This document shows positions 16,988 to 54,749 of a stretch of DNA of 64,000 nt, one piece after another. A program made the position numbers and the translations under genes. Every line of letters starts with the position of its first letter. Within the stretch, counting starts at the first letter, position 1. Source of the stretch: a virus (lineage: Duplodnaviria; Caudoviricetes); the IMG/VR virus record IMGVR_UViG_3300037047_000246; one strand, given 5' to 3'. The notes beneath the pieces were generated by a model that was not told where the DNA came from, did not search any database, and was given only the letters and a program-made list of their open reading frames with translations.

Positions 16988-17260
16988 TCACGCCAAGTCC
17001 ACTTGAATCATCGCTTGTGCGGCGTCCCATTGGGTCCTGACGATCTCTACGACGCTGGCGAATTGTCCCAGACAAAGTGAGGTCGCGTGCAGCCGGCACC
17101 TGGCCGCCACGTACGTCGTGCTCCCACAGTTGACAAGGAACCAGTGCCTGGCTTCGCATCCGCATGGTCCATCCTCCGGATTGCCATTCCAGTTGTCGCA
17201 CTCGTCGGGCGACGGATCCCGAGTCGTCTCACACTTGTCGTTCCACTCATTCAAATTCAC
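16988..17260 (-). CDS. Zinc-finger family A member with a variant tag (MIQVDLA)
   Basis: PCGCEARHWF...ARCRLH...VEIVRTQWD; GTG start overlaps the upstream stop. Confidence 0.55.
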   Translation of the reverse strand: MNLNEWNDKCETTRDPSPDECDNWNGNPEDGPCGCEARHWFLVNCGSTTYVAARCRLHATSLCLGQFASVVEIVRTQWDAAQAMIQVDLA

Positions 17261-17436
17261 TGCCTTGAGGCCATCCCGCGCTCCTTCTTCTTGCGGCGAG
17301 TCATCAGCCACCACACAAGCTTCGCCACCTGCCTGTCCGACATCCCATCCGTCCGCAGGCGCAGCCATCCCGCCAGCCGGCGCAAACCCACCAGGTTCAG
17401 ACGCTTGGCCTGGTTCAACTCCGATTTGGTCACCAT
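17257..17436 (-). CDS. 59 aa basic micro-protein, below the track cutoff
   Basis: MVTKSELNQAKRLNLVGLRRLAGWLRLRTDGMSDRQVAKLVWWLMTRRKKKERGMASRQ*, coupled at both ends. Confidence 0.6.
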   Translation of the reverse strand: MVTKSELNQAKRLNLVGLRRLAGWLRLRTDGMSDRQVAKLVWWLMTRRKKKERGMASRQ

Positions 17437-17951
17437 CAGGATGCATGAACCCCCGACACGACAACTTCATTGAACACTGTCTGAACATCTTCTGGCGTCA
17501 AGCCTTCGCGCATTGCCTCCGCCATCTGGTCACGCAGCCGGCGGTTAGCTCTGAAGCGAATTTTGGCGTGCAAATCTCTCGAAACGGCATCCCACACAAT
17601 TCCAGCAAAACTGGTCAGCGTGGGCCAGCGGCCGATAAGCTGGTCGCTGGCCAGGCCACTACTCGCCACCCAATCATTGTCAGTCCATGCGAGTGCCAAG
17701 AATTCCAAAATCCGCGCCTTCGGCCTATGCGCGTCGATAATCCCGCCGCTGATTGGCAAATTTCTGCCGCCGCTTGAGCAGCGATATGCGGCGAACTTCA
17801 TCATCACCAACCTAGATTCCAAGTCGAACTCGACGTCATGTACGTCGATACGAGCTTTGGCGCCGCCGTACAGACGATGGACTAGGTTGCACCTGTCGGT
17901 CAGCACCAGGGATGACTCAATGTCATCCAAGACTGCCTTGAGCTTCATCAT
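17436..17951 (-). CDS. Hypothetical protein with helical tag (VSGVHAS)
   Basis: ...AMREGLTPEDVQTVFNEVVVSGVHAS*. Confidence 0.7.
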   Translation of the reverse strand: MMKLKAVLDDIESSLVLTDRCNLVHRLYGGAKARIDVHDVEFDLESRLVMMKFAAYRCSSGGRNLPISGGIIDAHRPKARILEFLALAWTDNDWVASSGLASDQLIGRWPTLTSFAGIVWDAVSRDLHAKIRFRANRRLRDQMAEAMREGLTPEDVQTVFNEVVVSGVHAS

Positions 17952-17965
17952 GTCGACCGTTACTT

Positions 17966-18196
17966 TTATGAATTTTGGACTTCCTCAATTATCAGCTCGT
18001 CCAAGGTCTTCTCAACTATCGGATAGCCTTTATTGACCCAGTTGGCCACAACCTCCAATGTCATTGCAGCAGCATGCTTGCGACACCTGGCCGATGTTCT
18101 TTTACCATCTCTGGACAGCATCTCGAACCACCGAGCAGCCGGCTTCCCGCACACTCCTCCTGCACCATCGCAGACCATCGGGATGCCCTTTTTCAT
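17966..18196 (-). CDS. Zinc-finger family A member with tag (IEEVQNS)
   Basis: VCDGAGGVCGKPAARWF...ARCRKH...EKTLDELIIEEVQNS*. Confidence 0.75.
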   Translation of the reverse strand: MKKGIPMVCDGAGGVCGKPAARWFEMLSRDGKRTSARCRKHAAAMTLEVVANWVNKGYPIVEKTLDELIIEEVQNS

Positions 18197-18394
18197 GGTA
18201 TGGTCCTTGCCAATTTTAGGACAAGTTTTAACAATTTTAGCATACAGTTGTAAGCACGTGCGGCGAAAATTTGCAAACGGGTCTGACTAAAATTTTGATC
18301 CTAACGCAATTTGCATGTTGCAACTGATTGGGGGATCAGTGCCATCATAATTCATCATGCAATGCCACTCTGGGTTACATGGCCATACATTAAC

Positions 18395-18937
18395 TCATGA
18401 TTCGTGAATGTGCATCACATCCAACATTGAGTCCACTTGTCGAGAAAACTCATCCCATTCTGGCCAATCTCGGTCCGGCACTTTGCTAGGACCCGACAGC
18501 AGCGATCGTTCGGACGGCAAAACTTTGCCAGAGCGCGGATCAACAGCGTCGCCCACTTCGGCACACGCCATATGCCATAGCCAACCCCGTTTTCTCGGAA
18601 TAAGCTTTGACTCAACTATGCCACTGCTGATTACACTGTCGACTATCCAGTCACCGCGCACGCGAGCAAATTGCCAAATGGGCGCTTCAGTTATCTGGTA
18701 GGGACGAAGCGGATCTGCCGACTGCAACCTTAGGAGCGCAGCCGTCTTGTCAGCAAAGGTCATGAAAAAGGTGGCTTCGCTGCCGCAGCATCGGACCAAA
18801 ATTTTCCAACAATCAAACGTCAGCTCGAGCATGGCGGACTGAGTCGAGGCCAAGTTCAAATTTTTGACTACCCTCAAGTTGACATTGGCACCGCCAACTG
18901 TCTCGTAAGCATGGAAGCCGGTTGCCCTTTTCATCAT
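18395..18937 (-). CDS. Hypothetical protein with tag (VMHIHES)
   Basis: 180 aa track ORF. Confidence 0.65.
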   Translation of the reverse strand: MMKRATGFHAYETVGGANVNLRVVKNLNLASTQSAMLELTFDCWKILVRCCGSEATFFMTFADKTAALLRLQSADPLRPYQITEAPIWQFARVRGDWIVDSVISSGIVESKLIPRKRGWLWHMACAEVGDAVDPRSGKVLPSERSLLSGPSKVPDRDWPEWDEFSRQVDSMLDVMHIHES

Positions 18938-18990
18938 CTCACTCCAGTTCGGCGCTGTTCTCTGACAACCCAGGCGCTTGCCCTAACGTC

Positions 18991-19332
18991 TCATTTCCTT
19001 CCAAGTGCTCTGCGCATCTCCAGGCGGTTCTCGCGTCCCACTGAGGCTTGTACCAACCCCACCCTTGCTCCACTGCATGCTGCGGATTTTCGCAGTTTCT
19101 CCTGCAGCTCCACACCACGCACCGAATCACTGTTTCTCTCATATTCAACACCAAGTTTGACTGCGCACCCGCCGCAAATGTAGTACAAATTCCCGTCGCC
19201 AGACGGGCAGCTATTGCGCACAAGCCACCCAGGAGGCGGCAGGTGCCAAAGCTTGCGCTTGACGAACGCAGTTTGCACGAACGCAGATGTGCGGCACTCG
19301 CAACATGCCACTCTTTCGGTTTTGGAACTCAT
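18991..19332 (-). CDS. CxxC zinc-ribbon hypothetical protein
   Basis: CCECRT...YICGGCA. Confidence 0.55.
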   Translation of the reverse strand: MSSKTERVACCECRTSAFVQTAFVKRKLWHLPPPGWLVRNSCPSGDGNLYYICGGCAVKLGVEYERNSDSVRGVELQEKLRKSAACSGARVGLVQASVGRENRLEMRRALGRK

Positions 19333-19352
19333 CGAGACAAATTACGCCTGAG

Positions 19353-19604
19353 CTACTCGCTGTGCACTTCAATCACAGCAATGGCGTCCGGGCTAATTTC
19401 CTCCCACAGTATGTGCCGCGGCGGACTGTTTGGACCGCCAAAATGCCAGTTGCCGTCCCACAACCGCGTCATCATGTCAGCGCAGGAGCTGCAGTATTGC
19501 AAAATGTTGCGGTCGTCATGATTTGTGAGAAAGACGCGCGTGGCCTCCAATGCACACTGCGGACGGAAGCACTTCACAACAGATCCTTGGTGCAGCAAAT
19601 GCAC
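19353..19604 (-). CDS. Zinc-finger-like protein with tag (VIEVHSE)
   Basis: ...YCSSC...WEEISPDAIAVIEVHSE*. Confidence 0.65.
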   Translation of the reverse strand: MHLLHQGSVVKCFRPQCALEATRVFLTNHDDRNILQYCSSCADMMTRLWDGNWHFGGPNSPPRHILWEEISPDAIAVIEVHSE

Positions 19605-19837
19605 CCCCTTCCTCCGCAGTCAGAACACTGCGGAGGAATGGTGACCGACGCGGCTGCCGGCCGAAGCTGGGCAGGATCTGCCTCGATTTGCACCGGGCCG
19701 GACCGTAGTGGGCACGACGCAGGAACGCAGTTTCTGTCAGGAGAGACGCTTTCGCTCAACCTACAGCCGCTCATGGGCGGGAATTCCACGCTGAACAGAC
19801 AAGGACACCCGACGCACGACTTAATGATTAGGTTCAA
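19574..19837 (-). CDS. Cys-rich micro-protein
   Basis: SCVGCPCL...CPL...CSDCGGRGCICC. Confidence 0.55.
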   Translation of the reverse strand: MNLIIKSCVGCPCLFSVEFPPMSGCRLSESVSPDRNCVPASCPLRSGPVQIEADPAQLRPAAASVTIPPQCSDCGGRGCICCTKDLL

Positions 19838-19882
19838 TTTGCTGCTCCGACAAATCCTAAAGACGAAAGTCGTAAAACATCA

Positions 19883-20608
19883 GTGTACAGTCGGAAAATG
19901 CCTAAATTCGCCGTGTTCAGCGATCTGCATCTTGACTTCCATCGCGATGGTGGTCGCGGGTTGATCCGTTCCTTGCCGAAGGAAGTGTGCTTGATGGCTG
20001 GAGATGCAAGCTCTGCCCCGATGCTGCTGGCTTCCTTAGCTTTAGCCTGCGAGCACTTCCCTCGACTCATTTACGTGAACGGGAACCATGATCTGTATGC
20101 GTCCAGTCCAACCGAGCTAGCCGAGGTGAGACGCATAGCCACAGAGCGACACCCAAACTTGTCGTGGCTGGAGCGAGGAACGTGCACGATTGACGGGACT
20201 CGCATCGTTGGCTCGACACTGTGGTTTCCGCCGTCTAACGCGCCAAGAAGCGGGCTGAATGACTTCTTCCAAATTCGGGACTTCGACCCCTGGGTGTGGC
20301 AAGAGCATGAGCGAGACATGAAGTTTCTCGAGGCCACGCTGAGGCCGGACGACGTGCTGCTTACGCACCATTTCCCGCTCCGGCAGTCAATTGCCCCAGC
20401 ATATGCCTCCTCGGCGCTGAACCCATTCTTCTGGGCCGGAGCCGACGCTGAGGAGCTCGTGCTCAAGCACATGCCGCGGCTGGTCATCCATGGCCACACG
20501 CACGACTGCATGTCGTACGAAGTTGGCTCTATGCGCATCGAGTGCAATCCTCACGGATACCCGAGCGAGAACCTAGCCTTCGACTTCTGCCGCATCGTCG
20601 AAACCTGA
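19883..20608 (+). CDS. Calcineurin-like metallophosphoesterase
   Basis: SDLHLD, AGD, GNHD, THH and HGHTH motifs. Confidence 0.93.
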   Translation: MYSRKMPKFAVFSDLHLDFHRDGGRGLIRSLPKEVCLMAGDASSAPMLLASLALACEHFPRLIYVNGNHDLYASSPTELAEVRRIATERHPNLSWLERGTCTIDGTRIVGSTLWFPPSNAPRSGLNDFFQIRDFDPWVWQEHERDMKFLEATLRPDDVLLTHHFPLRQSIAPAYASSALNPFFWAGADAEELVLKHMPRLVIHGHTHDCMSYEVGSMRIECNPHGYPSENLAFDFCRIVET

Positions 20609-20609
20609 C

Positions 20610-20903
20610 TCACTCCGAGTGCACCAGCGCCACCAAGACCTCATCCCAAGTGAGTCGCAGCGGCCAATAGACCGAATCGTGCTCGGCGCAACGGGGATGA
20701 ATCCAGCCTGTAGAAGAGGACACGCACCAGACCACGGCTGGCGCGTCGCACGGCTGCGCCGGTCCGATGTTCTCCTTGCAAAACTGCAGGCCGAGATCAG
20801 TCAGAATCCCAGAGCTTATTTCTGGCACTGGCGCCTCTTGAGATTTGATTGGCGGACGAGACGAATGGCTCGCGTCACGACTCCTGCACACGCGCCACTT
20901 CAA
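20610..20903 (-). CDS. Zinc-finger family A member with tag (VALVHSE); true start probably internal
   Basis: PCDAPAVVW...PRCAEH...LTWDEVLVALVHSE*. Confidence 0.6.
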   Translation of the reverse strand: MKWRVCRSRDASHSSRPPIKSQEAPVPEISSGILTDLGLQFCKENIGPAQPCDAPAVVWCVSSSTGWIHPRCAEHDSVYWPLRLTWDEVLVALVHSE

Positions 20904-21153
20904 GCCAGGCGTACTCGTCCAAATGCTCCTGGCACATCAGCAGACTTCCGACAAGAGAGTCGTCGGGGGCTTTGCCCATAGCCTCGCTCTCGCACTCGGC
21001 GACCGAGCACAAGCCCTGCTCCCGGTTTCTCGGGCTGAACACGCCCAGACAGGTTGCCATGCGGGAGCTTACATTTCGAGAGCGCTGAGCGGCTTGGCCG
21101 GCGGCGGTACAGTTCTCGCGGAGCCGAACCCAGTCAGGAGCACTCCCTGCCAT
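20875..21153 (-). CDS. Zinc-finger protein with tag (VARVQES), paralogue of 24447..24674
   Basis: GVFSP...CSVAEC...LMCQEHLDEYA shared with the paralogue. Confidence 0.7.
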   Translation of the reverse strand: MAGSAPDWVRLRENCTAAGQAAQRSRNVSSRMATCLGVFSPRNREQGLCSVAECESEAMGKAPDDSLVGSLLMCQEHLDEYAWLEVARVQES

Positions 21154-21571
21154 GAACGCATACGACCAAGCCAGCTACGCCCACGCAATCTCGGAGTTCG
21201 TGCGAAAGCTCAATGAAGTGGCGGCGCCCGTCGAGATTGGCCAGACCTGGGTCCGCATAGCGCCCTTGGACAAGGCGGACATAGGCGCGTGCGAGCGAGA
21301 CCCCAGGCTTTTGCCTTTCCTGCACGTCGGGTCCTTGGCCGAGATCGTCGACGCGGACGCGCGCTTCGTGCAGGTCCGGGTCGGAGGAGACTCGATCTTG
21401 CTGGAGCACGAGGTCTTTCTGCGGACGTTTGTGCGCGCTGCGGCCTCGCCGGATTGGGCGGCGCGGCCTCCTGCAGCGCGAGACGGAGCTGCTCTTGGGC
21501 GAGCAGGAGAGCCGCGGACAGCGCTTAATCCTTTCGACCAGCCGCGAAAGCTGTCTGAGCGGATCGAATAG
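21152..21571 (+). CDS. Hypothetical protein, possibly SH3-like
   Basis: IGQTWVRI...VGSLAEIVDADARFVQVRVGG...; SD-like AGGAG upstream. Confidence 0.55.
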   Translation: MNAYDQASYAHAISEFVRKLNEVAAPVEIGQTWVRIAPLDKADIGACERDPRLLPFLHVGSLAEIVDADARFVQVRVGGDSILLEHEVFLRTFVRAAASPDWAARPPAARDGAALGRAGEPRTALNPFDQPRKLSERIE

Positions 21572-21635
21572 AGCAGAGCGAATCAGGCACGCTGCGCTGG
21601 GCGGACAACGGCAATGGCGGAGCCATGTCCACCGC

Positions 21636-22049
21636 TCAAATTTTCTCCCAGACAGCCTTGATGCGGCCAGAGCACGTCTGGATGCCGTTCAAAAACACCG
21701 TCTTGCGCTCGATGGCGGTGCCGCTCTTCGCATCCCTGGTCCAAGAAGCCTGTCCGACAGTTCTGACCACGCCGCCGTTTGCTGCGGGGCACATGGTGTC
21801 GCATGAAGACATGCAGTTGTCTGCAGAGTAGTCGATCGGCCCGGTGCATCCAAGCGCCTTGATGCTTTCGGTGGTGGGCTGACTGCTCAAGCTGACGATT
21901 TCGTTTGCAGGAGCGGAGCAGGTGCCGTCTTGATAGGAGTATTTGACTTGGTAGGTGCCGCGCCGCTCGGCGCAAACGTCGAGGGAGTCTCCTTGCTCAG
22001 AGGAGCATCCGACCGACAAAGCCAAAATCAAAAGTGCGCAGAATTTCAT
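21636..22049 (-). CDS. Cys-rich lipoprotein, paralogue of 30537..30986
   Basis: MKFCALLILALSVGC lipobox; GGAGG SD. Confidence 0.8.
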   Translation of the reverse strand: MKFCALLILALSVGCSSEQGDSLDVCAERRGTYQVKYSYQDGTCSAPANEIVSLSSQPTTESIKALGCTGPIDYSADNCMSSCDTMCPAANGGVVRTVGQASWTRDAKSGTAIERKTVFLNGIQTCSGRIKAVWEKI

Positions 22050-22142
22050 ATATCCTCCATTCCTAGGGGATTACGCCAAAAGCGGCAGCACTTCCACCTT
22101 CTACTAGCTGCTTGTTGATCAGTTTGGCCAGTACCTCATGGT

Positions 22143-22376
22143 TCATGGTCGTCTCCTTGTCCCGGCAGGCCTTGGTCGACCAGGTCGAGCGACTCCTGCC
22201 GGACCTGCTCGACCATCCGATGATGCAGCCATGACGTCCGCGCCGACAGCGTCACCCACCACGAAATCGTCACCTTCCCAAGCCGCATCTCTTATGCTGT
22301 TTGCGTAGTGCTCTTCGAATTCTGTCTGAGTCAAGTCAAGGTGCCCGGAAATAAACCAAGTCGTCATTGTAGTCAC
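22143..22376 (-). pseudogene. Truncated SLOG/YspA-like protein
   Basis: WFISGHLDLT...FVVGDAVGADVMA N-terminus followed by a low-complexity R/P/G tail that looks out of frame. Confidence 0.4.
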
Positions 22377-22549: not shown

Positions 22550-22611
22550 GAATGAGGTTACGCTCGATGCAGACGAGTTTACGCTATTCACTCACACGCC
22601 GCCAAACGGAC

Positions 22612-23843: not shown

Positions 23844-24224
23844 CTACGACTCGTCAGACTCTTCATGCAGACATTTATACCGAAGTTCATAACCTCGTCT
23901 CTGGCTTAGTTTGCTCCACTCTGGAAGCGGGCGGCTGTTGTCCCAACCGTCAATTTCAAAACGTCCCTTGCAGTCGGCACGCATTGCCTCCTGGCACTCG
24001 ACAGAGGGGCATCGGCACATCATCGTGAACCACATGGTGCCGTCCGGAGACACCTCTGCCCGCGTTATTTTGGCGGACCCGTAATCTGGCGCTTCCACGC
24101 CGATGCTTGAGACTGCTGCGCATCCAGCGCAGACAGACAAGGCAAGATGCAACGTCACGATTATAACGGCATAAGCGCTGCCGCGCTGACGTATGTTGTC
24201 GCAGTGCACTGGTCTCGCTCCCAT
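23844..24224 (-). CDS. Putative exported or lipoprotein
   Basis: Hydrophobic segment ending in CAGC. Confidence 0.5.
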   Translation of the reverse strand: MGARPVHCDNIRQRGSAYAVIIVTLHLALSVCAGCAAVSSIGVEAPDYGSAKITRAEVSPDGTMWFTMMCRCPSVECQEAMRADCKGRFEIDGWDNSRPLPEWSKLSQRRGYELRYKCLHEESDES

Positions 24225-24243: not shown

Positions 24244-24450
24244 TTACTCTTCCATGACCGCCTTCACTTGCCTCTCGTCGCAGTCAGTCAGTTCGTATTC
24301 GCCCAGTTTGTAGATGGTTTCTCGAATTGTGCCAGAGATGCTGGTCAGCTTCAAGCCACACTTGGCACATGCGAAGTTCCTGCCAATGAGCTGCCAACGG
24401 TGCGGGGCAGTTTTAAGCTGCGTCTGAGTATTTGTGCGTCTAGCGTTCAC
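24244..24450 (-). CDS. CxxC...C micro-protein with tag (VKAVMEE)
   Basis: HRWQ...FACAKCG...TDCDERQVKAVMEE*. Confidence 0.7.
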   Translation of the reverse strand: MNARRTNTQTQLKTAPHRWQLIGRNFACAKCGLKLTSISGTIRETIYKLGEYELTDCDERQVKAVMEE

Positions 24451-24674
24451 GACTCCTGCACCAGTTCAACCTCAGTTTCAGCGTACTCGTCCAAGTGCTC
24501 TCGACATAGCATCATTCCGTCTACTGGAGAGCCGCAAGACAACGCTCCGGCGATCTCCCCGTCGCATTCTGCCACCGAGCAAACACCGCGAGTGATGTTG
24601 GAAGGACTAAACACTCCAATAAATCGCGCCATGCTAAATCTTACATTCCGGCTCGCGATCCAAAGAAGCTTCAT
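24447..24674 (-). CDS. Zinc-finger protein with tag (VELVQES)
   Basis: Paralogue of 20875..21153. Confidence 0.7.
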   Translation of the reverse strand: MKLLWIASRNVRFSMARFIGVFSPSNITRGVCSVAECDGEIAGALSCGSPVDGMMLCREHLDEYAETEVELVQES

Positions 24675-26416: not shown

Positions 26417-26635
26417 TTACAGCGAATGCACCTCGGCCGCCTCGGCCTCGGCTCGCGTGCACTCGCACTCGACGATGGACACGTTTTGCCAAGTCCCATT
26501 CCGAATAGATTGCCAGCAAGCGGCGCACACGGCGACCGGCGCGCTGCTTCCGTCGGGAAAAATTGCCCAGCGCTCGGGCGCGCCGTGCGAGCCGTCGTCC
26601 CACTCGCAGCGATCGAGCGACCGGCGCGCAGTCAC
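26417..26635 (-). CDS. Zinc-finger-like protein with tag (AAEVHSL)
   Basis: RCEW...H...VCAACW...CTRAEAEAAEVHSL*. Confidence 0.65.
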   Translation of the reverse strand: MTARRSLDRCEWDDGSHGAPERWAIFPDGSSAPVAVCAACWQSIRNGTWQNVSIVECECTRAEAEAAEVHSL

Positions 26636-29778: not shown

Positions 29779-30012
29779 TCACTCCCAATGCACCTGCGCG
29801 GCCAGAAACTCGTCCGGAGAGACGTCGATCGCATTGAACAGCGGCCTCATTTTGTTGTGCTCAGAACATAGGGCGAACGGCGCGCCGTTCTCAAGCACGA
29901 GCAGGCTTGCTGCACGCTTGCTGCAACGCTTGCTGGAAGAGCCTGACCCAGACCTCTTCCAGCGCCAGGAACACTGGAAATCGGAATCATTGACTGCGTA
30001 AGAAGCGCTCAT
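29779..30012 (-). CDS. Zinc-finger family A member with tag (AAQVHWE)
   Basis: QCSW...RCSKRA...PFALCSEH...DVSPDEFLAAQVHWE*. Confidence 0.75.
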   Translation of the reverse strand: MSASYAVNDSDFQCSWRWKRSGSGSSSKRCSKRAASLLVLENGAPFALCSEHNKMRPLFNAIDVSPDEFLAAQVHWE

Positions 30013-31285: not shown

Positions 31286-31519
31286 TCATGAGCAGCGCAC
31301 CTGGTCCAGGAGCTCGAGGGCGTCGGCCTCTTCGGAAGAGATTTCGCGGACGGGCTCGTTGAGGCGGGGCTCGCGGGACCACTCGATCCACCACAAGGAG
31401 TGCTCCTCGCAGACGCGGGAGACGGAGACGCCCCCAGGCCTGCCCTGGGCGAAGAAGCGGGCGGCGGGGAGGTTGCAATGACACAGAGGCCCGGCATGCT
31501 TGCAAAGATTGCCGCTCAT
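31286..31519 (-). CDS. Zinc-finger family A member with tag (LDQVRCS)
   Basis: LCKH...CNLPAARFF...VCEEH...EISSEEADALELLDQVRCS*. Confidence 0.7.
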   Translation of the reverse strand: MSGNLCKHAGPLCHCNLPAARFFAQGRPGGVSVSRVCEEHSLWWIEWSREPRLNEPVREISSEEADALELLDQVRCS

Positions 31520-31731
31520 GACGAATGCACCAGCAGGACGGAATATTCGGCGGCCGAGACCTCGGAATACATGCCCATCAGGAGGGACGCCAGATCGTCG
31601 TGGCTCTTGCACAGGGCGAACGGCAGGCCCCGGTCGGACGCCCAGCACCGGAAAGCGGGCTGCCCGCACCGCTCATAGGGATGGCCGCCGTAGATGAGCC
31701 AACGGCAGGGAAAGTCGGAAGGGCTTGCCAT
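31516..31731 (-). CDS. Zinc-finger family A member with tag (VLLVHSS)
   Basis: PCRW...RCGQPA...PFALCKSH...EVSAAEYSVLLVHSS*; closest by eye to 29779..30012. Confidence 0.75.
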   Translation of the reverse strand: MASPSDFPCRWLIYGGHPYERCGQPAFRCWASDRGLPFALCKSHDDLASLLMGMYSEVSAAEYSVLLVHSS

Positions 31732-33048: not shown

Positions 33049-33357
33049 TCAGCTGTCGTGCACTTCGGCGACGTCGATGGTGGTCAAGGCGATGTCCAGA
33101 TGCTGGCGCAGCTGCAGCACTTCGTCCCGGGTCAGGTCGAGGCTGGTGCGGCACCCGGAGTCTGGTCGGTCCAGGGTCAGGCACACGTGCCGGTCAAAAC
33201 GGTCTGGCGGCTCGTTCTCACAAGAGTAAAAGACAACAGACACGCCAACCTGGGCGCCCGTATGCAGCGAAGACTTGAACTGGCAGCAGTACTGGACGCT
33301 GCGGGCAAGCTCCTGGACAGTTTTGGCCGAGCGGCGGCCAGCTAGCAAGCGCTTCAT
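33049..33357 (-). CDS. Hypothetical protein with tag (VAEVHDS)
   Basis: Track ORF, coupled. Confidence 0.65.
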   Translation of the reverse strand: MKRLLAGRRSAKTVQELARSVQYCCQFKSSLHTGAQVGVSVVFYSCENEPPDRFDRHVCLTLDRPDSGCRTSLDLTRDEVLQLRQHLDIALTTIDVAEVHDS

Positions 33358-35963: not shown

Positions 35964-36248
35964 TCACTGAGACTGCACTTTATACACCTCGGCATCAAGC
36001 AGCAGCTGGGCGGCTTGCTCGTCGGTCAGCGCTAAACGCCGGCTTTTGGTGGCAGGCACAACCGCCCAACACTGCTGGCAATACCGGGTTAGAACGGTGT
36101 TGAACTGGTCTGGATTTTGGTCATCCTCGCACCAGAACACCACCCACTGGGTGGGCAGGTTGAGGCATCGGTGGCGCCACCGGGCCGGGCATGACCGGCC
36201 GCAGTCATCGGTGTTGTAAACGAATCGTCCAGTAATTTCTATCATCAT
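35964..36248 (-). CDS. Zinc-finger-like protein with tag (VYKVQSQ)
   Basis: HRC...RYCQQC...LTDEQAAQLLLDAEVYKVQSQ*. Confidence 0.7.
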   Translation of the reverse strand: MMIEITGRFVYNTDDCGRSCPARWRHRCLNLPTQWVVFWCEDDQNPDQFNTVLTRYCQQCWAVVPATKSRRLALTDEQAAQLLLDAEVYKVQSQ

Positions 36249-36940: not shown

Positions 36941-37363
36941 TCACTCATTGTGGATGATCTCCACTTGGAGCTCGGGGCTGTACGGCCCGGACTCGTCTTG
37001 GGCCGACGGGGTCTGTCGGCCCAAAATGTGGCCGAACAGCTCGGTGAGCACGAGCACATCGTCCTCGTTCCTGTCGAACGGCAGGCGCAGCTTTTCGGCC
37101 ACGTAGTTAGGCGCCAGGTACCCGGCCGGAGCCAGCACGCAGCAGCGCCCGCTGCAAGCGCCGTCCGCGAGCGACACCACGAACGAGCCGGGAAAGCATC
37201 CGATCCCTTCTTCTGCGCCCCCGGGCACCTGCACGAACGACACCACATACCTGGAGCCGTTGCCCGGCTGGTACTCGAGCAGCACCTGGCGGGAGAACAG
37301 CCTGGTCGGGTCGTGATGATCGCGGATCCAGCAGATGGACTCTTGAATCGTCTTGGTTCGCAT
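36941..37363 (-). CDS. Hypothetical protein with tag (VEIIHNE)
   Basis: YQPGNGSRY motif; GAGGTGA SD. Confidence 0.75.
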   Translation of the reverse strand: MRTKTIQESICWIRDHHDPTRLFSRQVLLEYQPGNGSRYVVSFVQVPGGAEEGIGCFPGSFVVSLADGACSGRCCVLAPAGYLAPNYVAEKLRLPFDRNEDDVLVLTELFGHILGRQTPSAQDESGPYSPELQVEIIHNE

Positions 37364-37372
37364 TCAGTCACC

Positions 37373-37573
37373 TCAACTGTTGTGCACGAGCCACAGCTCG
37401 GCTTCTCGCTCTGTGATTTCCGTATTCGCAAACAGCCAGCGCCCGTCCGGGTGTGGGCAATCGTCTTCTGCGTGCCATTTGCACCAGGCTACAAGCTCCT
37501 GCCCTAGTGTGGCAAACCGGACAGCTGTGCAGCGGCATTTGCGGTCGTCATCGTCCACGTAGTTGCAATTCAT
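37373..37573 (-). CDS. Zinc-finger family A member with tag (LWLVHNS)
   Basis: Paralogue of 37662..37856. Confidence 0.8.
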   Translation of the reverse strand: MNCNYVDDDDRKCRCTAVRFATLGQELVAWCKWHAEDDCPHPDGRWLFANTEITEREAELWLVHNS

Positions 37574-37683
37574 GACTCTTGCACCGCCTCGACCACGGTC
37601 TCTTTGACGAGCTCGGCCAGCTCCTGCTCAAGCTCGTCGGTGTCGGCCCCGGCGGCGTCAGTCAGCTTTGATGCACCAGCCAT
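37570..37683 (-). CDS. 37 aa micro-ORF consisting mostly of the tag helix
   Basis: MAGASKLTDAAGADTDELEQELAELVKETVVEAVQES*; ATGA overlap with 37373..37573. Confidence 0.6.
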   Translation of the reverse strand: MAGASKLTDAAGADTDELEQELAELVKETVVEAVQES

Positions 37684-37856
37684 ACCTCGGCCTCTTGTTC
37701 GGTCACTTCAGCATACAGGAACAGCCAAATGCCGCTTGCGTTCAAACCAAGCGCGTAATGCGCCTCGCACCTGGTCACCAAATAACCGTCGCCCGTCAGG
37801 GCGAACCGGACAGCTGGTCCGTTGCAGTACTCGGTTTCTGAGTGGTTGCATTTCAT
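37662..37856 (-). CDS. Zinc-finger family A member with tag (VWLVHQS)
   Basis: MKC...CNGPAVRFA...TRCEAH...EVTEQEAEVWLVHQS*. Confidence 0.8.
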   Translation of the reverse strand: MKCNHSETEYCNGPAVRFALTGDGYLVTRCEAHYALGLNASGIWLFLYAEVTEQEAEVWLVHQS

Positions 37857-44094: not shown

Positions 44095-44148
44095 GTCACC
44101 TCCGCGGTCCGGTACGCGTGGCGCAGCCAGATCGCTGCCTGGCTTCAA
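44095..44148 (-). promoter_or_regulatory. Promoter-like cassette
   Basis: TTGAA-N27-CGTACCG...GGAGGTGA. Confidence 0.7.
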
Positions 44149-44342
44149 ACCTGGTGCACCAGCCAGCATTCAACTTCTTCGCGCGTCAGAACAGGTATGC
44201 CATATCGCCGCATCTCTTCATCTGTTATGTAAATGTTGCGATGTGCCGGACACACCGCGATGAGAGCGAGTCCGGCATTCACCAGATGAAAGTGTGTGGG
44301 CGGACTTTTACAACCATGGGCTCTGCAAGAAATGTCAACCAT
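44145..44342 (-). CDS. Zinc-finger family A member with tag (CWLVHQV)
   Basis: CRAHGCKSPP...VCPAH...LTREEVECWLVHQV*. Confidence 0.75.
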   Translation of the reverse strand: MVDISCRAHGCKSPPTHFHLVNAGLALIAVCPAHRNIYITDEEMRRYGIPVLTREEVECWLVHQV

Positions 44343-47884: not shown

Positions 47885-48313
47885 TCACAAATCCATGACC
47901 TTGCGGCAATAGAATTCATCCAGCGCCATCCGGAAGATTTCTTCCCAGCGGTCCTCCAGGTCTGCGTTGCCCTTGGTGCACATGATGCGCAGAAGCTCGC
48001 GCTTGGCGTCGTGCAGCCGCTTGTCGTCAGCTTCCTCGACGCACTCGGACTCAGTGGCCGGCGCGACGTGCGAAATCTGGCCGCGCAGATGCAGCACCCT
48101 GCGGTCTGAACGCCAATGCGTGCCGCCCCACGAAGCGATTTTGTGCGCTTTGCCCTTGGCGCAGTCGTCGCAGAAGCCGAACACGTCCTGGTATTTGCCG
48201 TTATCTTTGTAAGGCACCAAGTCCGAGTAGTGCACGCGAAAAAAGTGCTTGGCCGGCCGCCCGCAGTTCCTCAGGCGCTTGTCTTCGCTGAGCTTCATTC
48301 CTTTGCATCTCAT
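47885..48313 (-). CDS. Zinc-finger family A-like protein with tag (CRKVMDL)
   Basis: MRC...NCGRPAKHFF...FCDDC...ALDEFYCRKVMDL*. Confidence 0.75.
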   Translation of the reverse strand: MRCKGMKLSEDKRLRNCGRPAKHFFRVHYSDLVPYKDNGKYQDVFGFCDDCAKGKAHKIASWGGTHWRSDRRVLHLRGQISHVAPATESECVEEADDKRLHDAKRELLRIMCTKGNADLEDRWEEIFRMALDEFYCRKVMDL

Positions 48314-49008: not shown

Positions 49009-49779
49009 ATGAACAACCGACTGCGCGCCATTTGCGACAAGTTGCCCTGGACGTTCGAAACGTCTGCCGGACGGGACGAGCGGACGAGAGACATCGTGCT
49101 CGGTCTGGGCGATCTTGCCGCTCTCGGGCGCCGGGCGCAGAAAGCGCTCGACGAGCTCGAGCGCTCAGGCAGCTTCAGGGGCCTAGCCCCCTACCTGAAG
49201 ACCAACGAAGGGCGCATTGACCAGCTGAGGTTGGACGCCGCGTCCATGCCGCCTGCTGCAGAGCTCAGCCCAGCGCAGCTGCGCTGGGTGCGGCGCCTGA
49301 AGCTCGAGTGCGTGCGCATCGAACCGAGTTCGGCTTCCACGAGATGGGTAGCTCAACTGTGCGGAGTAGGCTACGATTGGGAGCCCCGCCGCAGCCGATT
49401 CGCAATTGTGCGGACGCAAGTGCAAGTGGCTGCGGCAGTAATTGCCCCATCGCGCAACCACTGCGATTCGTACGCCATAGGGTCTTTCGGTCCAGATCAT
49501 TTGACTCTGGACATGTCGGACGACAGCGCGCCGGAACTGGACCCTGCAAAGCTCGCTCAATCTGCAGCCGAACGGCTGGTGACCTGCTGCGATCGCGGCT
49601 TTCGCTCGGATATGGCCAATGTGCGGGTAGCCAGGAAGCAGGTGCAAGCGAAGCTTGTCGAATCCGGCAAGTGCCTCGAGTGGACGGAGATGTGCCGGGA
49701 AATGATCGCGAGCGCCAAGCGCGAAGCGATGGCGGGCGAGTATGGACAGCAAGCCGTGAAGCACGTGATGGAGACTTGA
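49009..49779 (+). CDS. Hypothetical protein with tag (VKHVMET)
   Basis: 256 aa, divergent from 48341..48877. Confidence 0.75.
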   Translation: MNNRLRAICDKLPWTFETSAGRDERTRDIVLGLGDLAALGRRAQKALDELERSGSFRGLAPYLKTNEGRIDQLRLDAASMPPAAELSPAQLRWVRRLKLECVRIEPSSASTRWVAQLCGVGYDWEPRRSRFAIVRTQVQVAAAVIAPSRNHCDSYAIGSFGPDHLTLDMSDDSAPELDPAKLAQSAAERLVTCCDRGFRSDMANVRVARKQVQAKLVESGKCLEWTEMCREMIASAKREAMAGEYGQQAVKHVMET

Positions 49780-49814
49780 GCGCCGGCGCAAGGCGCCGTG
49801 CGCCGCGCGTACCG
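49775..49814 (+). promoter_or_regulatory. Conserved promoter-like cassette upstream of the BRCT gene
   Basis: Near-identical to 38361..38400. Confidence 0.75.
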
Positions 49815-49846
49815 GGCAGCGGACAACAAACCAAGAGGCGAACGTC

Positions 49847-50188
49847 ATGGCGAGAAAAGGTTCCGAAGGAGAAGCGGTCGGCACTGTGTTGGACGTGATG
49901 GAAATCACCGGCGTGCTTCGCGGCAAGTCGTTCAGCATCACCGGACATCTGGGTTTGCCGCGCGACCAGGTGGTGGCCATCATTGAAAGGGCCGGGGGCA
50001 CGTTCCACAAGACTCCGACATACGGCACGACGTACCTGGTGACGAACCTCGATTGGAACGAGGGGTCCACTGTGGCGTCGGGCACGTCGCGCAAGTTGAT
50101 CAAGGCCCGCGAGATGGGCATCAAGATCTTGTCGGAAAAGCAGCTGCACGACATGATCACGGAGCTGGCCGAAGCGGACAGCAAATGA
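49847..50188 (+). CDS. Stand-alone BRCT-domain protein (DNA ligase LigA C-terminal type)
   Basis: LRGKSFSITGHL...RDQVVAIIERAGG...TTYLVT...SRKLIKAREMGIKILSE. Confidence 0.9.
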   Translation: MARKGSEGEAVGTVLDVMEITGVLRGKSFSITGHLGLPRDQVVAIIERAGGTFHKTPTYGTTYLVTNLDWNEGSTVASGTSRKLIKAREMGIKILSEKQLHDMITELAEADSK

Positions 50189-50376
50189 AGCGCTTCCCCG
50201 GCATGCGGTGCGAATTCAAGTCGTGCCAAAGAGAGGTGGTGCAGTTTTTGCAGACTTGGGCGGACACCCTGGTGTGCAGGTGCGAAGTGCACAGCATACC
50301 TTTCCTAAATATGCGCCGAGACATCAAAGAGATTGACCTGCAGCAAGCTCAAGTGCTAGACGTGCACAGCAAGTGA
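50185..50376 (+). CDS. Zinc-finger family A member with tag (VLDVHSK)
   Basis: RCEFKSC...CRCEVH...EIDLQQAQVLDVHSK*. Confidence 0.75.
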   Translation: MKRFPGMRCEFKSCQREVVQFLQTWADTLVCRCEVHSIPFLNMRRDIKEIDLQQAQVLDVHSK

Positions 50377-50386
50377 GGGTGACTCG

Positions 50387-51133
50387 ATGGTTGGCAGATT
50401 TGTGGTGGACAACAACTCTGATCCGGCGGAAGCAAAGCAAGTTTTGCGCCAGCTCCGCCGCACAGTCCGGTTGGGCAAGATAGCGGAGCGCGCTCTGAAG
50501 TCTTTGGAGGAGAGAGGATCTTTCGACAGCAGGGTCGTCGTGCTGCACAGGGAATATGGCTACTACTGCGCTGCTGTGCGAAAGTTGTCTGCTTACAGAC
50601 CCTTCAGTCGGGACGACGTGCCCGGTTGGCCTGAGCTGACTGTGGTGTGCGGCAAGAAGACCATAGGGTCCCACGGCGGCTCCCGATTCGACCAAGTGTC
50701 TTTGTGGCTGCTTGGCACAGGGTTTGCGCCGCGCCGCCATATCAAGCCGGTCGACCAGTGGGAGCAGGTGACCCTGCGCAAAGGCGTGCCGGGAGCGAGG
50801 CTCGGCACATGTCGCATGAAGGCGAACGGCGAAGTGACGTTTGTCGTGTCGTCGTCTCTAGAAGAGACGACGAACTGCGTGATACGCATCAGCCGGAATC
50901 CAGGCGCTTCTGCCAAGTCCTTGGCAGAAGCGCAGCGCTTTGCGCGCGTCGTGGCGGCATGCTTGGTGGATGTCGGCCGCCCCCACGAACTGGAGCTGTT
51001 CAAAAAGTGTCCGCAGTACTTGACGGACCTGCGGCGCGCTGCGCCTGACTGGCTCATTGAAGACGGACACGTCCACCGGATGTTCAACGACATTCTGGAC
51101 GCTGTTGCAGTTGTTCGAGTGATGGAGGCGTGA
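50387..51133 (+). CDS. Hypothetical protein with tag (VVRVMEA)
   Basis: 248 aa track ORF with a GAGGGTGA SD. Confidence 0.75.
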   Translation: MVGRFVVDNNSDPAEAKQVLRQLRRTVRLGKIAERALKSLEERGSFDSRVVVLHREYGYYCAAVRKLSAYRPFSRDDVPGWPELTVVCGKKTIGSHGGSRFDQVSLWLLGTGFAPRRHIKPVDQWEQVTLRKGVPGARLGTCRMKANGEVTFVVSSSLEETTNCVIRISRNPGASAKSLAEAQRFARVVAACLVDVGRPHELELFKKCPQYLTDLRRAAPDWLIEDGHVHRMFNDILDAVAVVRVMEA

Positions 51134-51515
51134 GCATGATCGAATTCAAATCGGCCGGGGCGACGAGGTCTGGCAAGCGGGTGCAGGCGCACTTCAAAGT
51201 GGACGGCCAAACCCGGTGCTGGACTTTGACGCCGACGCTCGCCGAGCAGTTCAAAAAGCAGTTCGATAGAGGCGGCACATCGAGAGACATCACCGTGTAC
51301 CAAATGTTGGCGAGCATGATCGGAGGCGACACGATCAGGCTGCGCCAGACCGCGCAGGAGCGCAAGATGCAGCATCGCGTGCAGCGCTGCGGCTGTCCGA
51401 GGCCGACAGCGCGCTGGTCGCATGGACGAGGCAGGCGCTGCAGTTTGGCATGAGCGATGCCAGGCTGCGCGAGATCTTCGAAGAAGCGATCGTGCAAAAC
51501 ACGCACGAGTCGTGA
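51130..51515 (+). CDS. Hypothetical protein split by a frameshift near 51380, or followed by a 21 aa tag-only micro-ORF (51450..51515)
   Basis: The alternative frame reads AALRLSEADSALVAWTRQALQFGMSDARLREIFEEAIVQNTHES*. Confidence 0.65.
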
Positions 51516-51517
51516 AT

Positions 51518-51561
51518 GCGGATGAGGGCGGATCGATTTGACTCAATCCGCCCTCATCCGC
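51518..51561. terminator. 16-bp perfect inverted repeat between convergent gene blocks
   Basis: GCGGATGAGGGCGGAT-N12-ATCCGCCCTCATCCGC. Confidence 0.75.
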
Positions 51562-51690
51562 TCCCAGTTTAATTGGAGGACTTCTGCCTCACATATTAAA
51601 TTGGCTACTGCGCGGAATGTCGGGCCATCGTCCGCGCCATCTCGCCCGGCCAGGTGTTCCTATTAGCTACTGTCTAGACGCATGTTGGCC

Positions 51691-52056
51691 TCACATTCCG
51701 TGGATGCTTTTGACAAGATCTTTGCGCAAAAACTGTACAATGAGAGATGCAGCGCGTCTCGGGGATGCGGTTTGGTGTAGCGCGAACTCTGTCGTGAAAA
51801 AAGCCGGAGTGCCCGTCACGACAGTGGCCGTGACCGTAGAGTGGCGGAGCTGGGACTTGAAGAATGACATTTCGGCCACGCGGCATCCGCCAAAGCTCAC
51901 CGACTCCCGGTAAAAGAATACGCCTGCTGCGCGCGATTCGAGCGGCGTCATGGCGAGCTCGTAACCTTCTTTCTTGAGTCTGGCCGCAACGACAGCATGC
52001 GCTTCTCTGGCGAGAATCTCGAAAGCTCTGCTGCGATTGCTAGACAACGCTCTCAA
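51691..52056 (-). CDS. Hypothetical protein
   Basis: Coupled ORF. Confidence 0.55.
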   Translation of the reverse strand: MRALSSNRSRAFEILAREAHAVVAARLKKEGYELAMTPLESRAAGVFFYRESVSFGGCRVAEMSFFKSQLRHSTVTATVVTGTPAFFTTEFALHQTASPRRAASLIVQFLRKDLVKSIHGM

Positions 52057-52406
52057 AATCTGTTGGCCCTTCTTGAGCGGCGCTTGCGCGGGATCGGAGC
52101 GGCTGCTGCTTCAAGCGGCATGACGCCGAAGTGCTCGATTTCCGCGGCCAGCGGATTGGTGTCGCCGGCGCGGCAGTCGAACAGCACCGTGGCGCAGTCG
52201 GCCCGGCCTCCAGCCCGGTCCCGCTTGAGCACAAGCACAATGCCGTCGACCAGCGCCTGGTCGTCTCCCGCAGCCGTTCGCTCTCGAAGAGGGATGGCCT
52301 CGGCGGCCAGGCGCTCCAGCTCCTGCAAAGCCTGCATGCGAGAAGCGCCAGGCATGCGCCGCTCGATGAACCTGTCGACTGCGTGCTCTGTGAAACGGAT
52401 CTTCAT
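52053..52406 (-). CDS. Small protein with an HAVDRFIER motif (RelE/DUF4258-like fold suspected)
   Basis: MKIRFTEHAVDRFIERR; motif resemblance only. Confidence 0.55.
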   Translation of the reverse strand: MKIRFTEHAVDRFIERRMPGASRMQALQELERLAAEAIPLRERTAAGDDQALVDGIVLVLKRDRAGGRADCATVLFDCRAGDTNPLAAEIEHFGVMPLEAAAAPIPRKRRSRRANRF

Positions 52407-52444
52407 AGCATCCTCAGCTTGTATTCCATCCCCAACACCAAACT

Positions 52445-53416
52445 TTACTTCTTGTGTTTGGCCGCCCACTCCTCAAGCGTCGGGATCTTGACGGGACCGC
52501 TGTTGGTCTTGATAGCTTCGTGCGAGTAGTGCTCCATCAGCACGCGCCACAGAGCGACGCGCGCTGCTGGGTGCTTGGGAACGATCCAACCTTTCTCAAC
52601 GCGATCGAAGAAGGCGCGGGGGATGGCGCCGCAGGCTCGCCCGAACTCTCGGGTCCAGCTGGCGCGCTTGATCCAGACATGGTGGTTGCCCGCATGCAGC
52701 TTGGAATCTTTGATCTGACCAATGACCAGCGAATTCCGCAGGGTATTGGCGAGACGCCCGTATCCGAGCATCTCAATAGCATTGCAACAGGCCGGGTGCA
52801 CCGGCGATTTGCGATTCAGAGCTGCGATGCGCACCAGGCCGTTCATCAGACCGCGCAGGCCAAACGGCTTGTAATGCTCTATCAGAAATTCGACCAGAGC
52901 CGGGTACTCCGCGAGCTCGATCATTGCACCCATTTCGTCAGAGTCTATGGGATCCTCGGCATATCCCTTGCCGGCGCAGTCCGGTCCCAAACATCGCTGG
53001 ATGCTCAGTGCATCGGTCAGCGGCATGCCGCAACTGATGCACTTCTCCGCGATGCCGTTCAGCACCATCGTGCCGTGCACCATCTTCTCGGTCGAGATGG
53101 CCCCGACGATCGCCTTGGACAGCTCCAGGCGGCGGGCCTTCTGCTCCGCGGTCTCGGCCTGAGCGGCCGGGGCGGCCTGAACGGCGGGGGCTTCGACTTC
53201 GGGGGCGGACTCGGCCTGAATGGCCGCGCGCTCCTGCCTGTCGAAGTCCTTCTCGAGCTGCACGGCCTGCTCCTCGCGGCCCTCTTCGGCTGCTGCAGCA
53301 GCCTCTTCGGCTTGGGCGATCTCGGCCAGGTCAGAAGAGGCTGGGGGCGGCTCGCTCGCTGGCTCGCTCGCGCCAGAAATGAGTGCATCCAACTGCGCCA
53401 AGAAACTGTTCGACAT
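52445..53416 (-). CDS. DUF6011-like zinc-finger protein with an acidic/Ala-rich N-terminus
   Basis: CISCGMPLTDALSIQRCLGPDC; GGAGGTGA SD. Confidence 0.8.
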   Translation of the reverse strand: MSNSFLAQLDALISGASEPASEPPPASSDLAEIAQAEEAAAAAEEGREEQAVQLEKDFDRQERAAIQAESAPEVEAPAVQAAPAAQAETAEQKARRLELSKAIVGAISTEKMVHGTMVLNGIAEKCISCGMPLTDALSIQRCLGPDCAGKGYAEDPIDSDEMGAMIELAEYPALVEFLIEHYKPFGLRGLMNGLVRIAALNRKSPVHPACCNAIEMLGYGRLANTLRNSLVIGQIKDSKLHAGNHHVWIKRASWTREFGRACGAIPRAFFDRVEKGWIVPKHPAARVALWRVLMEHYSHEAIKTNSGPVKIPTLEEWAAKHKK

Positions 53417-53419
53417 GCT

Positions 53420-53472
53420 GTCACCTCCGCTCCTCGGTACGCGCACAGCGCGCACACTTACGATTTCGTTCC
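53420..53472 (-). promoter_or_regulatory. Promoter-like cassette
   Basis: GCGCGTACCG...GGAGGTGA-cagc-ATG. Confidence 0.7.
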
Positions 53473-53569
53473 ACTCGCGGTCCTGCTCTGCTATGACCTG
53501 CTGCTTGATGGCTCCCATACGGTCACCTACTGCAAATGTGCCGGGATTTACAGAGTTCAGCAGTTTGCG

Positions 53570-54292
53570 CTATTCGTCTTGCACCGCTTCCACCATGACT
53601 TCGTTCCAGGCCTCTGCAATTGCAGCACTAACAGCCTGTTCAAGGCTACGTCGGTCTGTTTCACGAAGCACGCCAAGTTTCGTCATCATCTTCTTCGTCA
53701 CACTTTTCAAATGTTCGGCAATGGCTGCAGATATAGCAAGGCCTCTGAGTTCAGACCATTTGCGAAGAATTTCCTGCATCCGCCGCACGCCTATCACTTC
53801 CTTGCAAGCCGCATCTATCGCTTCATTAAATCTGCCCCCTTATCATGATCGTCAAACCACCATTGCTGCGACAAGCAACTCTCTAAAATCTTTCCATGAC
53901 GCCATTTTTCCTCTGCCACAGTCCGCACCGCACGAACAACGTCTTTCTCGTCAATCGAGTACCAGCTAAGCTCCCTGCTGTTGTGTCTCAAAATGTTCAT
54001 GTGTGGCTCGTCGTCAAGTTTGACTGTGATCCCCCCATGCGTCAATGTTGGCAGACACGGCTTCATACCGAAGCCGCAGGTCACCCTCCTTGGCACTCTT
54101 CAGGACGCTAGCCAAGTTCCTTTTATAAGACGCCTTATTTGCAGCTGCCTTTGCAGCCTCCATCTGTTCAACTCGCACCGAGCGAACTTCATCATTCATC
54201 TTTTTCATCAGACGTTTGACTGTCGAAGCAGGGAGGCCTTTTTGTTTGCACAACCGTTCCAATTCTTGCGTCAAACACATATCGTCTCTCAT
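53570..54292 (-). pseudogene. Probably one tagged protein (ends VEAVQDE) broken into three ORFs at G-homopolymers
   Basis: Track ORFs 54014..54292, 53815..54096 and 53570..53797 join at the G6 (54031-54036) and G5 (53835-53839) runs. Confidence 0.55.
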
Positions 54293-54465
54293 GAATCTTG
54301 CACCATCTGCACCGCGATTTCGCGAACTCGGTCACTTATCTCTTCCGGCGACAGGCCGAGCTTCAACAGAGTTTCCACGCCTGTACGAAGGGACTGTTCC
54401 GCAAGCTCTTTGGCGAGTTTCAGATTCCAATCAGGATCTCCGCCTTGTTTGTCACCTTTCGACAT
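54289..54465 (-). CDS. 58 aa helical micro-protein with tag (VQMVQDS)
   Basis: MSKGDK...LLKLGLSPEEISDRVREIAVQMVQDS*; GGAGTGA SD. Confidence 0.7.
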   Translation of the reverse strand: MSKGDKQGGDPDWNLKLAKELAEQSLRTGVETLLKLGLSPEEISDRVREIAVQMVQDS

Positions 54466-54497
54466 TCGGTCACTCCACGTTCCAAGGTTTACGCAAA

Positions 54498-54749
54498 TCA
54501 GTCTGTCTGCACGCGGTGCACTATTCACTCTTCGAACGAAATTTCCGATATGCCAAGCAGTGCAAATTGTGGCGAGTGGTACTCGCAGCGCGCCAGCGTT
54601 TCCCCGTCTGCGCGAAGGAAGAAGTGCGCTGCGAATTTTTCGCACTGTTTTAATGGTGAAGGGCTGAGCCCAACATACACGAGACAAAATGCTTCGCACT
54701 GCACGCGGCCAAGAGCTGTCGCCCGGTCACACATCCTGCACTGCCTCAA
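54498..54749 (-). CDS. Zinc-finger family A member with an in-frame TGA at 54525-54527 just before the tag
   Basis: QCEKFAAHFF...ARCEYH...SEISFEE*IVHRVQTD*. Confidence 0.7.

Follow-up and report, generated by a model that had tools for sequence, protein, structure and literature searches.

A previously undescribed family of zinc mini-proteins of about 65 residues is expanded in a 64,000-nucleotide stretch (hereafter the window) of the virus record IMGVR_UViG_3300037047_000246, which represents an uncultured jumbo phage from groundwater, the same DNA being present in groundwater and coal metagenomes. The record, of 362,524 bp, carries direct terminal repeats and is rated complete, and the window corresponds to its positions 297,348-361,347 read on the reverse strand; coordinates below refer to the window unless given as genome positions. 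The family is real and new, and most of its members end in a short C-terminal peptide (the tag, or tail) that also ends many other proteins of the phage. We see about an even chance that these proteins, as paralogs of one new single-metal family, act as small acidic protein-binding modules whose shared helix engages a common putative partner.

The members share a layout consisting of a Cys, a variable spacer, Cys-G-x-P-A-x-x-F/W, about 18 residues, Cys-x-x-His, a variable linker, E-I/V-T/S-x-x-E and a tail ending in V-[H/Q/M]-x-S. Started from 8 seeds, a profile search over all 6,885 stop-to-stop open reading frames (ORFs) in the genome was iterated until it settled on 18 members, and a zinc-core-only profile with the tail removed, a partly circular check, recovered the same 18 at expect values (E) of 1.4e-7 or lower, the next ORF being noise at E 2.8e-3. 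A profile made mostly of external homologues found 19 members in the genome at E <= 1.4e-3, including the one at 47885. Twelve dispersed loci had been named from the letters of the window by an earlier model reading (the sequence-only reading); by translation and profile searches all 12 exist with the layout it described, and on the three profile searches (18, 18 and 19 members) 11 of them are strong matches, while 47885, a 142-amino-acid (aa) Cys4 variant, is marginal. Most of its coordinates stand, except that 50185-50376 lies on the plus strand and that 54498 is where a tail remnant ends, the coding sequence (CDS) being 54525-54749; its count of about 12 copies was incomplete, the window also holding those at 19353, 26417 and probably 35964. 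Five more members lie outside the window, at genome positions 23951-24214, 284037-284324, 293631-294167, 294457-294915 and 294672-294983. The features in the window are listed below, "profiles" marking those assigned by profile match.

16988..17443, minus strand: member, 151 aa from the ATG at 17443, with a long N-terminal extension; core C..CGCEARHWF..ARCRLH; degenerate tail AMIQVDLA; profile E 5.6e-8.
17966..18196, minus strand: member, 76 aa; C-x6-CGKPAARWF..ARCRKH; tail TLDELIIEEVQNS; profiles.
19353..19604, minus strand: extra member absent from the earlier list, 83 aa; Cys4 variant C-x4-C..YCSSC; tail ISPDAIAVIEVHSE; E 1.4e-7 with the core-only profile and 3.9e-8 with the wider one.
20610..20903, minus strand: member; core C-x9-CDAPAVVW..PRCAEH; tail LTWDEVLVALVHSE; followed by an opposite-strand gene; start uncertain (TTG at 20903 versus a 72-aa form called in the database, P0008); profiles.
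26417..26635, minus strand: extra member, 72 aa, with swapped ligands, namely Cys, His (at the site of the second Cys), Cys and Cys (CAAC); profiles.
29779..30012, minus strand: member, 77 aa; C-x15-CSKRAASLL..ALCSEH; tail VSPDEFLAAQVHWE; profiles.
31286..31519, minus strand: member, 77 aa, whose start codon shares an ATGA with the stop of the member upstream; extended tail ISSEEADALELLDQVRCS; profiles.
31516..31731, minus strand: member, 71 aa (P0001); C-x12-CGQPAFRCW..ALCKSH; tail VSAAEYSVLLVHSS; profiles.
35964..36248, minus strand: probable divergent Cys4 member, 94 aa; C..CLNLPTQWVVFW..RYCQQC; long tail LTDEQAAQLLLDAEVYKVQSQ; weak profile match (E 0.66), assigned by eye.
37373..37573, minus strand: member, 66 aa; profiles.
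37570..37683, minus strand: 37-aa ORF with little besides an acidic helix and the tag (…ELVKETVVEAVQES), overlapping zinc genes on both sides.
37662..37856, minus strand: member, 64 aa, modelled; C3, C11, C30 and H33; profile E 3.7e-18.
44145..44342, minus strand: member, 65 aa; C-x4-CKSPPTHFH..AVCPAH; tail LTREEVECWLVHQV; profiles.
47885..48313, minus strand: marginal member, 142 aa; Cys4 core C-x13-CGRPAKHFF..GFCDDC, then an 80-aa extension ending in FYCRKVMDL; E 0.22 with the core-only profile and 1.4e-3, in two pieces, with the wider family profile.
50185..50376, plus strand: member, 63 aa, the second one modelled; C-x4-CQREVVQF..CRCEVH; tail IDLQQAQVLDVHSK; profiles.
54498..54749, minus strand: member, with the CDS (54525-54749) ending at an in-frame TGA (54525), exactly at tail position -9.

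Beyond the TGA at 54525 the frame reads on as IVHRVQTD (EISFEE*IVHRVQTD*) with the tail register preserved, and Trp occupies position -9 in 5 of 138 homologues; the TGA is possibly a recent nonsense change (e.g. TGG to TGA) or a read-through site. Two further minus-strand ORFs, at 20875-21153 and 24447-24674, have the same Cys3His order, yet they are matched by no family profile and were left out. They are paralogs in which CSVAEC...LC(Q/R)EH is directly followed by the tag (LDEYA..EV..VQES), and they may represent a second, related zinc family.

A conserved Cys-Cys-Cys-His zinc-knuckle scaffold with highly variable loops, as the sequence-only reading had described, was borne out by the alignment of 160 sequences, in which the entropies at the four ligand columns are 0.0, 0.1, 0.0 and 0.3 nats versus 2.4-2.9 in the loops; the ligands are likewise invariant or nearly so in a set of 70 sequences. 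Among 71 parsed sequences, the first two Cys are 3-22 residues apart, and site 4 is taken by His in 66 and by Cys in 5. The 26417 copy, like P0012, its nearest relative outside the genome (53% identity), has His at the second site and Cys at the fourth, so that three Cys and one His are kept; such an exchange between sites 2 and 4 is as expected of a metal site. Judging from these columns, the bound metal is most likely a single zinc.

A shared fold had been set beforehand as a test of the family, and AlphaFold2 gave one layout for two divergent members, i.e. a zinc knuckle, a beta-hairpin, a CxxH helix, a third strand and an N-capped C-terminal helix. The 64-aa protein of 37662-37856, modelled from an input with 13 paralogs, reached a predicted local distance difference test score (pLDDT) of 91.5 and a predicted template modelling score (pTM) of 0.74, with strands at residues 17-20, 26-29 and 49-51 and helices at 31-37 (starting at Cys30/His33) and 53-63. 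The most divergent clear copy, 50185-50376 on the plus strand, is 33% identical to it, and its model (pLDDT 87.7) has the elements in the same order. In these models the conserved I/V lies in the third strand, T/S-x-x-E forms the helix N-cap and the remainder is a helix of 11 residues, which is the most confident part of the 37662-37856 model (block pLDDT 97, residues 51-60). As modelled, therefore, the tail of the zinc family is its own best-conserved part, an ordered N-capped helix rather than a flexible appended tag.

The tail helix of the zinc family reads E-E-[A/Y/F]-x-V-x-x-V-[M/H/Q]-x-S, an amphipathic stretch of 11 residues opened by T/S-x-x-E. When the tag is defined as phi-x-x-[V/I]-[M/H/Q]-x-[S/A/E] at the exact C-terminus after an acidic helix, it is kept in 15 of the 19 copies, the exceptions being 16988, 31286 and 47885, where it is degenerate, and 54525, where it is cut by the TGA. 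The strict tag ends 63 ORFs of the genome versus 5.5 expected, at least 55 of them outside the zinc family, and the constant tail noted in the sequence-only reading is this same peptide. The tagged ORFs are concentrated at genome 280-362 kb and 0-40 kb, and the zinc family is the largest single family among them (19 of about 63). Residues common to the zinc family and the other tagged ORFs are V-7, V-4, [M/H/Q]-3, an acidic residue at -2 and S-1, and the residues from -14 to -8 are peculiar to the zinc family. Few tagged proteins have a recognisable domain, namely a GIY-YIG endonuclease and DUF4116 repeat proteins; Pfam searches with 10 further tagged proteins returned only GIY-YIG and DUF4116, and no functional theme. 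The endonuclease (genome 127560-128879, minus strand, outside the window) is a 440-aa protein ending in ARQVMES.

The tail could in principle be the by-product of a DNA or RNA signal by which an overlapping next gene is started (its ribosome-binding site and start codon), and two codon biases lean that way: the last Ser is coded by TCA in 15 of 39 cases, in excess of a background of 9%, because TCATGA overlaps carry the ATG of the next gene, and GTG is enriched at Val -4 (60% versus 38%). Nevertheless, all four Val codons are used at -4 (GTG 30, GTC 9, GTT 6 and GTA 5), as are both the TCN and AGY families for Ser -1 (AGC 10, TCG 8 and others beside TCA), and position -3 is coded by CAY, CAR or ATG. 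The tail is also kept before an opposite-strand gene (20610) and before non-coding spacers of 15-20 nucleotides, and its substitutions in 138 outside homologues are of amino-acid type (V/I, T/S, A/Y/F and M/H/Q/L/F). This codon variety, the persistence without overlap and the type of substitution make a pure DNA or RNA explanation very unlikely; by these patterns the tail is selected at the peptide level and not at the DNA level. Counts of synonymous and non-synonymous tail changes against a related contig had only 3 usable orthologue pairs, and mutual information between tail and core columns was dominated by gappy columns.

For about eight of the 19 paralogs, relatives outside the genome (45-63% identity) are clearly closer than any paralog inside it (31-43%), such as P0023 for 16988 (53%), P0011 for 17966 (63%) and P0021 for 44145 (56%), so these copies are old and individually maintained. 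Younger-looking duplicates are confined to two pairs, 37662/37373 and two copies near genome 294.6 kb. The scaffold had been called diversifying, which holds in that the loops are very variable between paralogs and is overstated in that these roughly eight copies are old and kept; as far as these identities tell, the family has been kept over a long time rather than diversifying fast.

Relatives are numerous elsewhere. A profile built from the window sequences only (A1) matched 202 clusters at E <= 1e-3 among 1.84 billion representative proteins clustered at 50% identity, and the 120 of them inspected are 57-195 aa long, mostly 60-90, and almost all align end to end with the same tail, those lacking it being P0032, P0072, P0097 and P0105. 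The homologues looked up are unnamed metagenomic proteins, and their contigs are phage-like, with arrays of small co-directional genes. One 116-kb contig (L002; GC content 0.60) is a close relative of the phage: it shares the TraR/DksA gene, has an AAA+ gene that is 83% identical and several zinc members, bears the tag on most of its small genes, and arranges zinc and tagged genes in arrays as in the phage. None of the Pfam, PHROG and NCBIfam models matches the zinc family, tblastn against 50,697 cultured-phage records gave no zinc-family match, a single-protein scan of IMG/VR found no close relative, and nothing relevant on a shared C-terminal tag in jumbo phages turned up in the literature collection covered. 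We place the family in a clade of uncultured huge phages.

Among all PDB sequences, the best match of the family profile was the N1 domain of ClpG (8p66_B, E 0.032), whose CGQPAT...LLCDDH was aligned to CGxPA...RCxxH; hhalign between the family and this domain gave a probability of 60% and E 8.4e-5 over 31 columns, and the same chain was listed by an independent structure search (Z score 2.4, root-mean-square deviation 2.8 A, 37 residues). ClpG N1 binds zinc through C6/C9/C31/H34 and its substrate through hydrophobic residues of strand 1, and the N-termini of ClpE and McsA are homologous to it (PMC10641755). All of these share with the phage family the ligand order Cys-Cys-Cys-His, with the final C-x-x-H at a helix start (C30/H33 and helix 31-37 in our model). 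ClpG N1 also has G-x-P-A after the second Cys and a beta-hairpin with a conserved hydrophobic residue on strand 1, where the phage family carries a conserved aromatic pair (F/W-F), followed by a C-terminal helical segment. In contrast, the known module forms the N-terminus of an Hsp100 ATPase or of the ClpC adaptor McsA, whereas the phage members are mostly free-standing proteins of 57-100 aa, the longer forms (up to 195 aa) also being without an ATPase or adaptor body; and ClpG N1 lacks the third strand and the highly conserved terminal helix of the phage family. Given the weak scores, the long first spacer, the free-standing format and the extra strand and helix, we say that the first ~40 residues appear built like the Cys3His N1 of ClpG, a weak similarity that leaves membership unproven.

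In the reading that we favour, the N-terminal Cys and the second Cys, 3-22 residues on and followed by G-x-P-A-x-R-F/W-F, would form one knuckle, from which a beta-hairpin would run to the other half-site, C-x-x-H, where a short helix begins; the variable linker would then return as the third strand (E-I/V), and the T/S-x-x-E cap would open the C-terminal helix. A core like that of ClpG N1, a peptide- and protein-binding module and not a DNA binder, could let the variable loops give each paralog its own target, and the invariant helix face (V-7, V-4, M/H/Q-3, acidic -2, S-1) that at least 55 other ORFs have in common could engage one putative partner. The likeness to a peptide-binding zinc module, together with a tail found on unrelated proteins, fits small protein-binding modules with a common docking helix. 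The sequence-only reading, which is partly supported, had proposed in essence the same, namely that the variable surface would pick a target and the constant tail would dock to a common receptor, as adaptor proteins do.

Several observations weigh against this reading. No binding partner, target or receptor was identified for the zinc proteins, and both zinc as the metal and the convergence of its ligands are putative. Every structural match is weak (Foldseek E >= 0.1, Z <= 3.4), so the likeness to ClpG N1 may have arisen by convergence, both having reached a common small zinc fold, and the first knuckle of ClpG N1 is CxxC, whereas in the phage family it is C-x3-22-C with a spacing that is never 2 (71 parsed). 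Expression is supported by one short contig from an RNA library that may contain DNA; it is 100% identical to 37360-37547, overlapping the member 37373..37573, and gives a faint hint of transcription. The tail being an ordered helix of the domain, its role could moreover be purely structural.

This last alternative, to which we give some weight though well short of likely, takes the tail as only structural or stabilising, a capping helix with a polar end that would guard small proteins from C-terminal proteolysis, and explains the same tail elsewhere by descent or by 3′-end capture at gene birth in tightly coupled arrays, with no common receptor. The very confident helix, present as the same element in the 50185 model, agrees with it, as do the many ATGA-joined genes, in which 3′ ends are under extra constraint. 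However, unrelated bodies keep identical residues at -7, -4, -3, -2 and -1, which packing on different cores would not require, and the 37-aa ORF is almost the tag alone. It is improbable that, like McsA for ClpC and N1 within ClpG, the zinc proteins are adaptors or selectors that deliver targets to an AAA+ machine of the phage, the tail being a docking or degradation signal: the core does resemble the ClpG/ClpE/McsA zinc module, and the same region has minus-strand genes for a MoxR-like AAA+ ATPase (60659-61765), whose counterpart in L002 is 83% identical, and for a DUF2201 protein (55535-57115) that combines a metallopeptidase-like and a VWA-like domain; but MoxR/VWA pairs are found in many phages without the tag, the ATPase and VWA protein are tied to the tag by adjacency alone, and the ClpG N1 similarity is weak. 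An equally low estimate goes to a bolder form, in which about 19 selectors on the ClpG/ClpE/McsA zinc module would each hold a different host protein, and the shared helix would be the handle for a single machine of the phage, be it an unfoldase, a protease or a compartment gate, that also takes dozens of other tagged proteins; if true, this would be a virus-encoded protein-addressing system of an undescribed kind.

Slightly less probable still are small zinc-ribbon binders of nucleic acids, e.g. regulators of early gene arrays. DNA or RNA binding is frequent among zinc ribbons, a pair of conserved Arg flanks the hairpin and the phage has its own sigma factor; against this, the family is acidic (median isoelectric point 5.9, net charge -2), which argues against DNA binding, and it shows no helix-turn-helix and no match to DNA-binding families. 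A long shot, placed just below, is that the zinc module itself reads the tag, the helix docking intramolecularly on the hydrophobic strand (R-F-F) and exchanging with the tags of other proteins to make a hub. The equivalent strand of ClpG N1 is a peptide-binding site, the zinc proteins are the most numerous tagged family, and the tag-only ORF is wedged between two members; yet an intramolecular helix usually just completes a fold. A complex prediction for the tail-less core (residues 1-48 of 37662-37856) with the 37-aa ORF scored 0.02, both chains being poorly folded without alignments, and speaks neither for nor against this idea.

The genes of the window lie mostly on the minus strand, in long arrays with frequent ATGA stop/start overlaps. 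Within the tagged-gene arrays are a sigma-70 family factor with regions 2, 3 and 4 (11307-12143, minus strand) and a TraR/DksA-type C4 zinc-finger protein (16022-16210, minus strand) whose C-terminus is nearly identical in L002. Directly 3′ of the stop of a tagged gene at 33049, the segment 33010-33048 (minus strand) holds a near-palindrome, AGTATATGCCATATACT, plus a second AGTATATG, which could be an operator or a terminator. Between the DUF2201 and MoxR-like genes lie a GIY-YIG endonuclease gene and a gene with DUF4379, restriction-endonuclease-like and Mom-like domains. Elsewhere in the window, a phage-encoded adenylosuccinate lyase (8778-10229, minus strand; Lyase_1 and ADSL_C, E 1e-46) was found, as was a papain-family cysteine protease (1478-2305, minus strand; Peptidase_C1, E 4e-12), unusual for a phage and adjoined by two collagen-repeat proteins (2741-4543 and 6410-7285). 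The 362-kb genome has four tRNAs, of which one reads UAA and none reads UGA; the former is an ARAGORN call at genome 176188-176278, outside the window, with the anticodon UUA.

Through the present analysis, one of the long arrays of tiny, nameless genes in huge phages becomes a defined family: its fold is predicted, it has a metal site and clear boundaries, and its relatives number in the hundreds. The puzzling C-terminal tag of a phage clade appears, in the largest tagged family, as a built-in N-capped helix. If the ClpG/McsA link is real, it would be the first hint that the tag system handles proteins; if not, this is still a new small phage zinc family that had no database model. Being small, soluble and easily made, a zinc protein offers a handle for seeking the partner of the tag.

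Compared by shape with solved structures, the nearest neighbours of the family are B-box, RING/U-box and ZZ treble-clef fingers, all at noise level (Foldseek E >= 0.9, Z <= 3.4, template modelling score (TM) <= 0.40); the fold searches gave nothing above noise, which does not imply a novel fold. B-box, RING and ZZ domains likewise have a hairpin, a helix and a metal at the knuckle, but hold two metals in a cross-brace (none in the U-box), whereas the phage family is predicted to hold one. No family member was matched by the Pfam model zf-C4_ClpX, a Cys4 domain with two CxxC pairs, in contrast to Cys3His with a long first spacer here. DUF7455 (PF24254) and unnamed small zinc proteins of actinobacteriophages are of similar size (55-100 aa), and over the first 53 residues their predicted structures agree with the phage family at TM 0.45-0.62 (0.56-0.62 for the DUF7455-related likeness); they differ in having no shared tail and in coming from phages of another host group, and the DUF7455 Pfam model matched none of 70 members at E <= 1. 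As for the tag, a short peptide common to many unrelated proteins of one virus or compartment is known from the capsid-targeting sequence of T4 and the cargo-loading peptides of encapsulins. The T4 signal is an N-terminal leader that ends in a head-protease site and is cleaved off, and the encapsulin peptides are C-terminal, of another sequence and unstructured, whereas the phage tag is a predicted helix that stands at the C-terminus and ends the protein.

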